Part shown: positions 735 to 2,708 of the stretch, in pieces
Layout: each line of letters starts with the position of its first letter
Position numbering within the stretch: the first letter of the stretch is position 1
IMG/VR virus record: IMGVR_UViG_2667527595_000022
Coordinates: 1-4,407 of that record
Direction: 5' to 3' (one strand)
From: a virus
Taxonomy: Duplodnaviria > Heunggongvirae > Uroviricota > Caudoviricetes
DNA length: 4,407 nucleotides
The notes under the pieces: generated by a model
The model's input: only the letters and a program-made list of their open reading frames with translations
What the model was told of the DNA's origin: nothing
The model's database searches: none
Translations under genes and position numbers: made by a program

Positions 735-2708
735 ATGGCATTTAAACACTATGACGTGGTCAGGGCATCATCGCCGTCAGACCTCGCAGGAAAACTGACG
801 CAAAAACTGAAGGAAGGCTGGCAACCCTATGGTAGTCCGATTATCTCAAACGCGGGTTATGGTGCTGAATTTATCCAGGCTATAGTCGCTGAAGGGGATA
901 TGACCTCTCCGGTAGTTTCACCGGGGGGAGATGGTACCCGGACTGTTGTTGTTGAACCAGAATATTACTTTGTCATTGCGCTGGCCGGACAGTCAAACGG
1001 CATGGCGTATGGTGAAGGCCTGCCGCTGCCGGAGACATATGACCGTCCGGACCCGCGTATTAAACAGCTGGCGCGTCGCAGTACGGTGACACCGGGTGAT
1101 GCGGCCTGTGCATATAACGACATCATTCCGGCGGACCACTGCCTGCATGATGTGCAGGATTTGAGCCGTTTTTCTCATCCGAAAGCCAGCGCAGAGCAGT
1201 ATGGGTGTGTCGGACAGGGATTGCATATTGCCAAAAAGCTGTTGCCCTTTATGCCGGAAAATGCGGGTATTTTGTTAGTGCCGTGCTGTCGTGGTGGCTC
1301 TGCGTTTACAGCCGGTGCTGACGGAACGTTCAGTGAAAGTTCAGGAGCGTCGGATAAATCTGAACGATGGGGCGTTGATAAGCCGTTGTATAAAGACCTG
1401 CTGACACGCACTCAGGCCGCGCTGAAGGCAAACCCCAAAAACATACTGCTTTGTGTTGTCTGGATGCAGGGCGAGTTTGATTTAAAACAGGGAGCGTACG
1501 CCAGTCAGCCCGCCATGTTTGATGCCATGGTGGAAAAATACCGTTCTGACCTGGCGGGAGTATCCGGTCAGTGCGCTGGTGCTTCTCCTTCTCTGGTGCC
1601 CTGGATTTGTGGTGACACGACGTACTACTGGAAGGAGACGTATTCAGCGCAATACGATGCCGTCTATGGCGCATACAAAACCAAAGCCGGTAAAAATATC
1701 TTCTTTGTGCCGTTTATGATGGATGACAATGGTCAGAAAGTCGGGACCAATGAACCGTCAGAAGACCCGGATATTCCGGCTATCGGGTATTATGGTTCCG
1801 GTGGACGAACGGATGCGAAGAGCTGGACAACATCCGATCGTAAAACCCACTTTGGTTCATGGGCGCGTCGCGGAATTATTTCCGACCGTCTGGCAACAGC
1901 CATTCTTCTGCATGTGGGCAGAGTGGCAGATTTTGTTTCCGGGAAAGTGACAAAAGCCGCGGTTTCTTCAGGCGGAGGCGTATCGCAACCAGCACAGGAG
2001 AGTGGCGATACTCAGCCTGAAGCCGTTGTCCCGACAAAGATACAGTCAGTGCTGGCTTATGATGTGAATGCGGAAAATGCCGCTCTGGCTTCGCAGGGCT
2101 GGACGCTGACAGATGTCAAAAACACGCTGGTCAGTGACAGTGGTTCAGGTAAAAAAGCCCTTCGTCTTGAAAAACCAGAAAATGGTCTTGCACAGAAAAA
2201 GACCTGGAAAGTATCGCACGCAATTGATGCCGGTAAGGGGAAGGAGCTGTTCGATAACGGCGGTGAAATCACGCTGCGCTTTAAAATCCCCGATGATGTA
2301 TCTCTCAATGCTTCTGCAAATCAATATTCTGCGGGTATTTACTGGCGCGGTAGTGGATGGCCGGGAGCGGAATCAGAGGAGGGTTATATTGCGGCCTTCT
2401 ATCTGCAGACTGATAAAACAAACATCAATGTGATGTATCATGCAAACACCACATCACAGCGGCTTGGTAGTTATGGTCCGTTCGATCACGACTGGCACAC
2501 GCTGACTTTCCGCTTCCCGGGTGGTGGCTCGCTGAACGTCACGCCGGTGCTTGATAATGCAGCAGGAAAACCGTTTACGCTGACCAGATGGACGAATGCA
2601 GCCTTTGAGGCCAACGCGCTGGCAATTACGGATATTACCGGAAATGCGGCAACTTACCCTGTGCTGATTGAAAGTCTTACTGTTGGTGTGAATGCCGTAG
2701 CAGCATAA
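735..2708 (+). CDS. nanS-p: Prophage-encoded sialate O-acetylesterase (NanS-p-like; SASA/SGNH-type esterase) with N-terminal DUF1737-like region and a C-terminal ~220-aa accessory domain
   Basis: Long ORF (657 aa from ATG 735, stop TAA 2706-2708) with a good RBS. The esterase region carries the GQSN motif (..FVIALAGQSNGMAYGEG..) typical of SASA-family 9-O-acetylesterases. The N-terminus MAFKHYDVVRASSPSDLAGKLTQKLKEGWQPYG matches my recollection of the DUF1737 N-terminus of NanS-p proteins in E. coli lambdoid and Stx prophages. It lies immediately upstream of the lysis cassette, as in those phages. Identity is from memory and motifs, not a database search. Confidence 0.8.
   Translation: MAFKHYDVVRASSPSDLAGKLTQKLKEGWQPYGSPIISNAGYGAEFIQAIVAEGDMTSPVVSPGGDGTRTVVVEPEYYFVIALAGQSNGMAYGEGLPLPETYDRPDPRIKQLARRSTVTPGDAACAYNDIIPADHCLHDVQDLSRFSHPKASAEQYGCVGQGLHIAKKLLPFMPENAGILLVPCCRGGSAFTAGADGTFSESSGASDKSERWGVDKPLYKDLLTRTQAALKANPKNILLCVVWMQGEFDLKQGAYASQPAMFDAMVEKYRSDLAGVSGQCAGASPSLVPWICGDTTYYWKETYSAQYDAVYGAYKTKAGKNIFFVPFMMDDNGQKVGTNEPSEDPDIPAIGYYGSGGRTDAKSWTTSDRKTHFGSWARRGIISDRLATAILLHVGRVADFVSGKVTKAAVSSGGGVSQPAQESGDTQPEAVVPTKIQSVLAYDVNAENAALASQGWTLTDVKNTLVSDSGSGKKALRLEKPENGLAQKKTWKVSHAIDAGKGKELFDNGGEITLRFKIPDDVSLNASANQYSAGIYWRGSGWPGAESEEGYIAAFYLQTDKTNINVMYHANTTSQRLGSYGPFDHDWHTLTFRFPGGGSLNVTPVLDNAAGKPFTLTRWTNAAFEANALAITDITGNAATYPVLIESLTVGVNAVAA

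Follow-up and report, generated by a model that had tools for sequence, protein, structure and literature searches.

The closest described relative of the protein considered here is NanS-p of phage phi24B, the product of vb_24B_21, of which residues 423-645 have been crystallised (PDB 6YP6; Franke et al., 2020, J Struct Biol 212:107596, as relayed by PMC10462455 and PMC8065619). In the account of these two later articles, both the fold of the NanS-p C-terminal domain and the hypothesis that it is a lectin have been public since 2020. The second of them, a review from 2021, states that there is no experimental evidence for carbohydrate binding by the domain (PMC8065619), and the first puts forward Y510, Y515, Y540 and F611 of vb_24B_21 as residues of a putative carbohydrate site (PMC10462455). 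A cryo-EM preprint reports that gp84 of phi24B (= vb_24B_21) is a component of the virion, in which hexamers of the N-terminal DUF1737 domain plug the face hexons of the capsid via Tyr42; slow proteolysis releases the esterase and the C-terminal domain, the latter of which is lost on storage (10.64898/2026.04.10.717836). The same preprint raises an analogy to Hoc of phage T4, a non-essential binding domain at the centres of the capsid hexons that could hold virions in mucus. Hoc, however, consists of Ig-like domains and binds as a monomer, whereas proteins of the NanS-p type combine a DUF1737 hexamer anchor with an esterase and a jelly roll and are shed by proteolysis.

Two further proteins are useful for comparison. 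Escherichia coli NanS (YjhS; PDB 3PT5) has a homologous catalytic core but carries neither DUF1737 nor the C-terminal domain; the latter is therefore an accessory module and not part of the enzyme fold. NanS-p of 933W (L0105 / Z1466) is a protein of 645 residues, numbered as in vb_24B_21. Truncated 933Wp42 variants were reportedly tested by Nübling and co-workers in 2014.

The DNA analysed here, referred to below as the window, is a stretch of 4,407 nucleotides that carries a gene of this type. An earlier note on the window had read the end of the encoded esterase as a separate, lectin-like or carbohydrate-binding domain behind a linker, with a specificity that the sequence does not reveal. 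This reading restates a result that was already published, and it is borne out, as the domain matches 6YP6 both by sequence and by predicted fold.

Gene and Domain Layout

The longest open reading frame of the window lies on the plus strand and extends from 705 (TTG) or 735 (ATG) to 2708. Judging from the sequence, the true start is the ATG at 735 and not the TTG at 705, because the resulting N-terminus, MAFKHYDVV, is common to the proteins of 933W, PhiR12_4 and phage 86. The identical gene is found in RefSeq under the name "SASA family carbohydrate esterase" (WP_000874521.1). A tRNA scan of the window found none. The features of the gene are collected in Table 1.

Table 1. Features of the NanS-p-type gene in the window, with positions counted from the first nucleotide of the window and residues from the ATG at 735.
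Feature	Position (nt)	Strand	Evidence
Prophage NanS-p-type sialate O-acetylesterase gene, 657 aa	735..2708	+	ORF list, conserved N-terminus
DUF1737 N-terminal domain, aa 3-53	741..893	+	Pfam PF08410, E 6e-17; Tyr42 kept
Catalytic SGNH/SASA esterase core, aa 71-391	945..1907	+	PDB 3PT5 (NanS), E 3e-117; Pfam SASA, E 1e-9
Variable low-complexity interdomain linker, aa 397-435	1923..2039	+	Composition, low identity, low pLDDT
C-terminal lectin-like jelly roll (aa 436-653 structured, then a 4-residue tail)	2040..2705	+	6YP6 match, AF2, Foldseek
DUF6645 (PF20350) stretch, aa 508-618	2256..2588	+	E 5.7e-27 (full protein), 7.6e-28 (domain alone)
Tyr531, aligned with Y510 of the putative vb_24B_21 carbohydrate site	2325..2327	+	Alignment
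Tyr536, counterpart of Y515; nearly invariant family-wide	2340..2342	+	Alignment
Tyr556, counterpart of Y540	2400..2402	+	Alignment
Phe624, counterpart of F611	2604..2606	+	Alignment

The Pfam families follow one another in the order DUF1737, SASA, DUF6645, and against the sequences of the PDB the window protein gives two non-overlapping matches, to 3PT5 over aa 71-391 and to 6YP6 over aa 438-653. Its three-domain architecture (DUF1737 - SASA - C-terminal domain) and the position of the C-terminal domain are like those of phi24B NanS-p, and the position of the gene, after Q and before the S/R lysis genes, is like that of the 933W gene.

The structured part of the C-terminal domain corresponds to approximately nt 2040-2693. 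The interval first proposed for it, 2140-2705 with ~220 residues, has to be revised: position 2140 falls in aa 469, is out of frame by one base and lies ~33 residues inside the domain, which begins at ~2040, and the interval holds 188 residues. A start at 2140 would remove the first four beta-strands of the domain model. The linker string that had been quoted as part of this region, AAVSSGGGVSQPAQESGDTQPEAVVPTK, comprises aa 408-435 (nt 1956-2039) and is thus located upstream of the interval, and the domain motifs quoted with it are present at nt 2334-2366 and 2481-2549.

Interdomain Linker

A low-complexity linker does separate the core from the C-terminal domain, but the description of it as rich in Gly, Ser and Pro fails for Pro. 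Over the 37 residues of aa 397-433, Val accounts for 19% and Ala, Ser and Gly for 13.5% each, with Pro at only 8%, so that the segment is better described as rich in Val, Ala, Ser and Gly. No other part of the protein is as poorly conserved as the linker, which has 22-29% identity to three other NanS-p proteins and varies in length among them; compared with that of phi24B NanS-p it is longer and unrelated in sequence. Residues 394-435 have a pLDDT below 50 in the AF2 model of the full-length protein, which is itself a weak model (pLDDT 56). The window linker has no "SSP" motifs, which have been linked to processing in phi24B; as the phi24B preprint offers them only as a guess, their absence is uninformative.

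Fold and Family of the C-Terminal Domain

The domain taken alone scores 97.4 bits with Pfam DUF6645 against a cut-off of 27, and the full protein scores 94.6 bits; no Pfam family besides DUF6645 matched in the domain. The Pfam model is shorter than the structural domain and spans just its central half. Residues 4-217 of 6YP6, a chain of 218 residues named "NanS-p", align with aa 438-653 of the window protein (E 3.3e-43, ~44% identity), and a search of PDB sequences with a family profile retrieved the same entry at E 1.1e-85. At E<=10 this profile search gave 6YP6 only, and no lectin or CBM.

For structure prediction, AF2 was run on aa 434-657 with an alignment of 43 rows, built from the members found in two profile searches. 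The model of the isolated domain has a pLDDT of 88.3 and a pTM of 0.88, with no segment below 50, and it contains 14 strands and two short helices, in line with the beta-strand-rich character that had been noticed in the sequence. The accompanying remark that the domain is rich in Trp and Asn applies to Asn, which makes up 7.1% of the domain vs 2.5% of the core, whereas the enrichment of Trp is mild (2.7% vs 1.8%). The full-length AF2 model, built from an alignment in which no homologues cover the N-terminal half, is poor (pLDDT 56) and is uninformative on contacts between core and domain; the C-terminal domain still reaches ~80 in it.

When the domain model is compared with published NanS-p structures, it superposes on 6YP6, and this entry is also the top Foldseek match in the PDB (E 8e-25, TM 0.84/0.86, rmsd 3.0, 41% identity). 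The next PDB matches, at TM ~0.5-0.65, are 2W68, calreticulin, VIP36 and subdomains of botulinum/tetanus Hc and NTNHA, all of them lectin-type jelly rolls. More than 200 PDB structures match at E<=1e-3, most of them calreticulin, VIP36, clostridial Hc/NTNHA subdomains and glucanases. Among the viral structures of BFVD, the neighbours are proteins named "Concanavalin A-like" and "LamG", tail-fibre/tropism-determinant proteins and the SGNH esterase of Pseudomonas phage LIT1, and one member of the family (P0058) has a sub-threshold match to Laminin_G_3 (E 0.002). On the predicted structure, the domain is thus a member of the concanavalin A-like lectin/glucanase superfamily, at the level of the fold only. 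Its family is that of the DUF6645 / NanS-p C-terminal lectin-like jelly rolls, with 6YP6 as the prototype.

The best structural neighbour outside this family is the CBM40 of the Vibrio cholerae sialidase (2W68; TM 0.56-0.65, E 6e-8), a lectin module that, like the window domain, is attached to a sialic-acid-processing enzyme. The two domains are 13% identical and have no relation at the level of sequence, and calreticulin, VIP36 and the clostridial subdomains score about equally; the resemblance to CBM40 is a lead, not family membership. A jelly-roll fold, moreover, does not by itself establish lectin activity. Overall, the fold of the domain, its family, its borders and its independence from the core are established in this analysis.

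Putative Carbohydrate Site

The window domain retains each of the four aromatic residues proposed for the sugar site of vb_24B_21, despite a domain identity of 44.6%. Beyond the E. coli classes, three of the four vary and Y536 alone is nearly invariant, a near-invariance that may be structural in origin. The positions that are conserved throughout the family are, in domain numbering, W23, G76, G77, F83, Y103 (= Y536), T126, H136, W154 and Y208.

Divergence and Distribution

The window protein and the 933W protein are most alike in DUF1737 (77% identity) and the core (72%), less so in the C-terminal domain (44.6%) and least in the linker (27%). The window domain is likewise 44.6% identical to that of phi24B NanS-p, from which it also differs in the lengths of its loops, for example by an extra "DDVSLNAS" and by a shorter loop after "WPGAE". 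The dN is 0.55 in the C-terminal domain vs 0.21 in the core, with a dS of ~2 that is saturated along the whole gene. As the synonymous divergence is saturated across the whole gene, the window sequence is taken to be an old allele and not the product of a recent domain swap. From these substitution rates, the C-terminal domain appears to be less constrained than the core, yet under purifying selection.

In the phage collection, two records carry the domain at >=99% identity, the one listed being PhiR12_3 (from ECOR13), whose domain is 100% identical to that of the window; the remaining 340 records, every Stx phage included, have <60% identity in the domain. Because this holds for every Stx-phage record, the window allele belongs to none of the classes observed among Stx phages, which for the C-terminal regions of Stx2a phages have been designated CTR1-CTR4 (PMC10462455). 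In a set of 5426 complete E. coli genomes, the allele occurs at >=99% nucleotide identity in 20, which come from human, wastewater and bird isolates. The carriers of the window allele are, in contrast to that of the phi24B allele, not Stx phages but non-Stx prophages in E. coli of commensal, UPEC and wastewater origin. The allele is rare and deeply diverged.

In the matching prophage, the gene is situated between Q and the S/R lysis genes, and no stx lies upstream of it. At the DNA level, the morphogenesis genes of this prophage share ~93% identity with their counterparts in VT2-Sakai/933W-type phages, and PhiR12_3 has a major capsid protein with 94% identity to L0116 of 933W.

The family as a whole is small, since only 25 of 1.84 billion cluster representatives matched at E<=1e-3 in an exhaustive HMMER search. 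A word-index search with the single sequence gave one near-identical fragment only; the family emerged from the profile searches and the exhaustive search of representatives. Most members are NanS-p-like and consist of DUF1737, SASA and DUF6645. One protein that has no esterase (P0054) is composed of two copies of DUF1737, DUF6645 and an extra C-terminal domain of ~95 residues. Proteins of ~340 residues from Salmonella and Cronobacter combine DUF6645 with an extra C-terminal domain as in P0054, again with no SASA, and one such Salmonella gene directly follows, at a prophage end, the gene for a polyvalent LPD/MuF protein of >2649 residues. These esterase-free members indicate that the domain is autonomous and can couple directly to the capsid anchor. 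Two sequences of ~200 residues (P0018 and P0025), composed of DUF1737 and DUF6645, were considered as a further esterase-free architecture and rejected, as they are internal-deletion remnants of NanS-p genes. A further candidate for membership (P0064) was discarded as a spurious low-complexity match.

Proposed Function and Alternatives

We consider the domain to be a glycan-binding module of the prophage NanS-p esterase, tethered by the linker, and assign this reading a probability of roughly 0.7. A flexible linker of ~39 residues would tether the domain to the SGNH/SASA core, and glycans would be bound in a cleft lined by the aromatic residues Y531, Y536, Y556 and F624. The likeliest ligands would be sialylated or O-acetylated mucin-type glycans, and their binding would keep the esterase on its polymeric substrate and thereby raise the local substrate concentration. 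By transfer from phi24B, DUF1737 would anchor the protein as hexamers on the face hexons of the capsid, and the lectin domain would be multivalent on the virion and later shed by slow proteolysis of the linker.

By this analogy, the domain is probably displayed on the virion. The features of a phi24B-type capsid anchor are found here, namely a DUF1737 that is 77% identical to that of 933W and retains the Tyr42 "tooth", together with a Traversvirus-type capsid in PhiR12_3. A more far-reaching proposal makes the domain a lectin that is displayed on the capsid and can be released by proteolysis, with divergent allelic classes that encode different glycan specificities and so set the mucus or bacterial surface to which the phage adheres. 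At least five divergent allelic classes of the domain, at 30-45% identity, are found within E. coli prophages. We advance this proposal tentatively, as one with a modest chance of being correct.

The bound glycan might instead be a polysaccharide of the bacterial surface, such as an O-acetylated O-antigen or capsule (e.g., polysialic acid), in which case the domain would aid adsorption or penetration of the envelope. This would fit the finding that gp84 is a virion protein in phi24B, but the protein is located there on the capsid faces and not on the tail (10.64898/2026.04.10.717836). Deacetylation of O-antigen has been named as a possible phage-side role, but the NanS-p enzymes that have been characterised have O-acetyl sialic acids as their substrates, both free and mucin-bound (PMC8065619). 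The neighbours in the viral structure library, which include tail-fibre and tropism-determinant proteins and the LIT1 SGNH esterase, point in the direction of a surface polysaccharide, as do the standalone Salmonella homologues, which lie last in a cluster of virion-type genes, and the many divergent allelic classes, which are reminiscent of receptor-binding proteins. Taken together, we regard a bacterial ligand of this kind as unlikely.

It is also improbable that the domain, instead of being a lectin, is a structural or regulatory appendage that mediates protein-protein contacts or oligomerisation, stabilises the esterase, or caps it until proteolysis removes the domain and so matures the enzyme on the virion. 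The cleavage of the C-terminal domain from gp84, which occurs both after release of the phage and in the purified protein (10.64898/2026.04.10.717836), is consistent with such a role, but the domain persists in proteins that lack an esterase for it to regulate. Over the family at large, most residues of the putative site vary, and protein-level evolution is ~2.7 times faster in the domain than in the core; yet the four site aromatics are kept between classes that are 44.6% identical. Glycan binding is, according to PMC8065619, without experimental demonstration, whereas all of the nearest folds are carbohydrate-binding jelly rolls. Finally, the region is neither disordered nor simply a continuation of the esterase fold: the isolated domain folds confidently in AF2 (pLDDT 88), a relative was crystallised as an isolated domain (6YP6), NanS forms a complete enzyme that lacks the domain, and SASA-free proteins carry it as well.

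Conclusion and Perspective

Little in this analysis is new in kind: the window adds a rare and diverged allele of a known domain. As this allele keeps the four aromatic residues, it offers a useful natural comparison for asking whether the aromatic patch is functional. The domain is still labelled "unknown function" in PHROGs and as a "DUF" in Pfam, and these annotations can be upgraded by transfer from 6YP6. Together with the capsid decoration reported in the 2026 preprint, the present findings support the idea of an esterase plus lectin being displayed on the heads of these prophages. If the tentative proposal of a releasable lectin with class-specific glycan preferences is true, the domain would be a determinant of niche or tropism in Traversvirus-like phages and not a mere helper of a metabolic enzyme.

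Start and flanks of the esterase gene

The mechanical ORF call of the esterase takes TTG at position 705 as its first codon, but the MAFKHYDVV motif is conserved among homologues and, together with the RefSeq annotation, places the true start at ATG 735, 5' of which stands GGGAGGAATA. A strong Rfam match to the sRNA family STnc100 also lies 5' of the esterase gene, at the place occupied by stx in Stx phages.

Eight consecutive A residues directly follow the stop codon of the esterase, and after them comes the inverted repeat CCGCCAG...CTGGCGG with a loop of 15 nt (2709-2752). 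From its sequence, this arrangement looks like an intrinsic terminator on the minus strand, pointing toward the esterase gene; it is missing from the list of the consensus terminator scan because that scan was limited to loops of at most 8 nt. The two small ORFs farther downstream match PHROG families that are labelled as being of unknown function and are kept in Stx-type phages.

Features around the esterase gene (window coordinates) and DUF6645 proteins lacking the esterase
Feature	Position	Strand	Remarks
STnc100 sRNA	294-503	+	Rfam, 138 bits vs gathering score 47; full length
STnc100, weak second copy	54-229	+	Rfam, 30 bits, under threshold; just ahead of first copy
DUF1378 ORF	2850-3044		between esterase and holin
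DUF826 ORF	2956-3360		between esterase and holin; overlaps DUF1378 ORF
Phage endolysin gene R	from 3657		begins at 3657, broken off after ~109 codons
R/gcvP junction	3982/3983	minus (gcvP)	truncated R adjoins internal gcvP segment
Esterase-free DUF6645, locus L007	8001-9035 (of locus)
Esterase-free DUF6645, proteins from family searches			P0053, P0054, P0058, P0061, P0066-P0089

Contig end

Positions 1-3983 match a prophage that 20 complete E. coli genomes carry. Positions 3982-4407 match part of the chromosomal gene gcvP, and do so in all 5426 complete E. coli genomes; the junction between R and gcvP is present in none of these 5426. Most likely the join stems from a chimeric contig or a misassembly; the alternative is a rare rearrangement.

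Domain annotation and esterase-free relatives

All PHROG families matching the C-terminal domain (2034-2705) or DUF1737 (735-905), namely phrog_3591, phrog_143, and phrog_2036, are labelled "unknown function", despite a crystal structure of the NanS-p C-terminal domain available since 2020 and a capsid decoration result for the DUF1737 part of NanS-p from 2026 (preprint 10.64898/2026.04.10.717836), so that annotation is behind the literature.

Besides DUF6645, the esterase-free proteins from the family searches carry an additional conserved C-terminal domain of ~95 aa, which has the motif ...RDDG..L...D.SSYVYFP...GG.V.LPD... and no Pfam match; in P0054, this domain and DUF6645 are coupled to two DUF1737 repeats. 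The Salmonella esterase-free DUF6645 genes lie 3' of a giant LPD/MuF polyvalent-protein gene, at a prophage end.

Two further E. coli proteins (P0018 and P0025) of ~200 aa are annotated as DUF1737 plus DUF6645. Their sequences show them to be remnants of NanS-p genes that have lost the esterase core through internal deletion, so NanS-p genes are decaying in some prophages.
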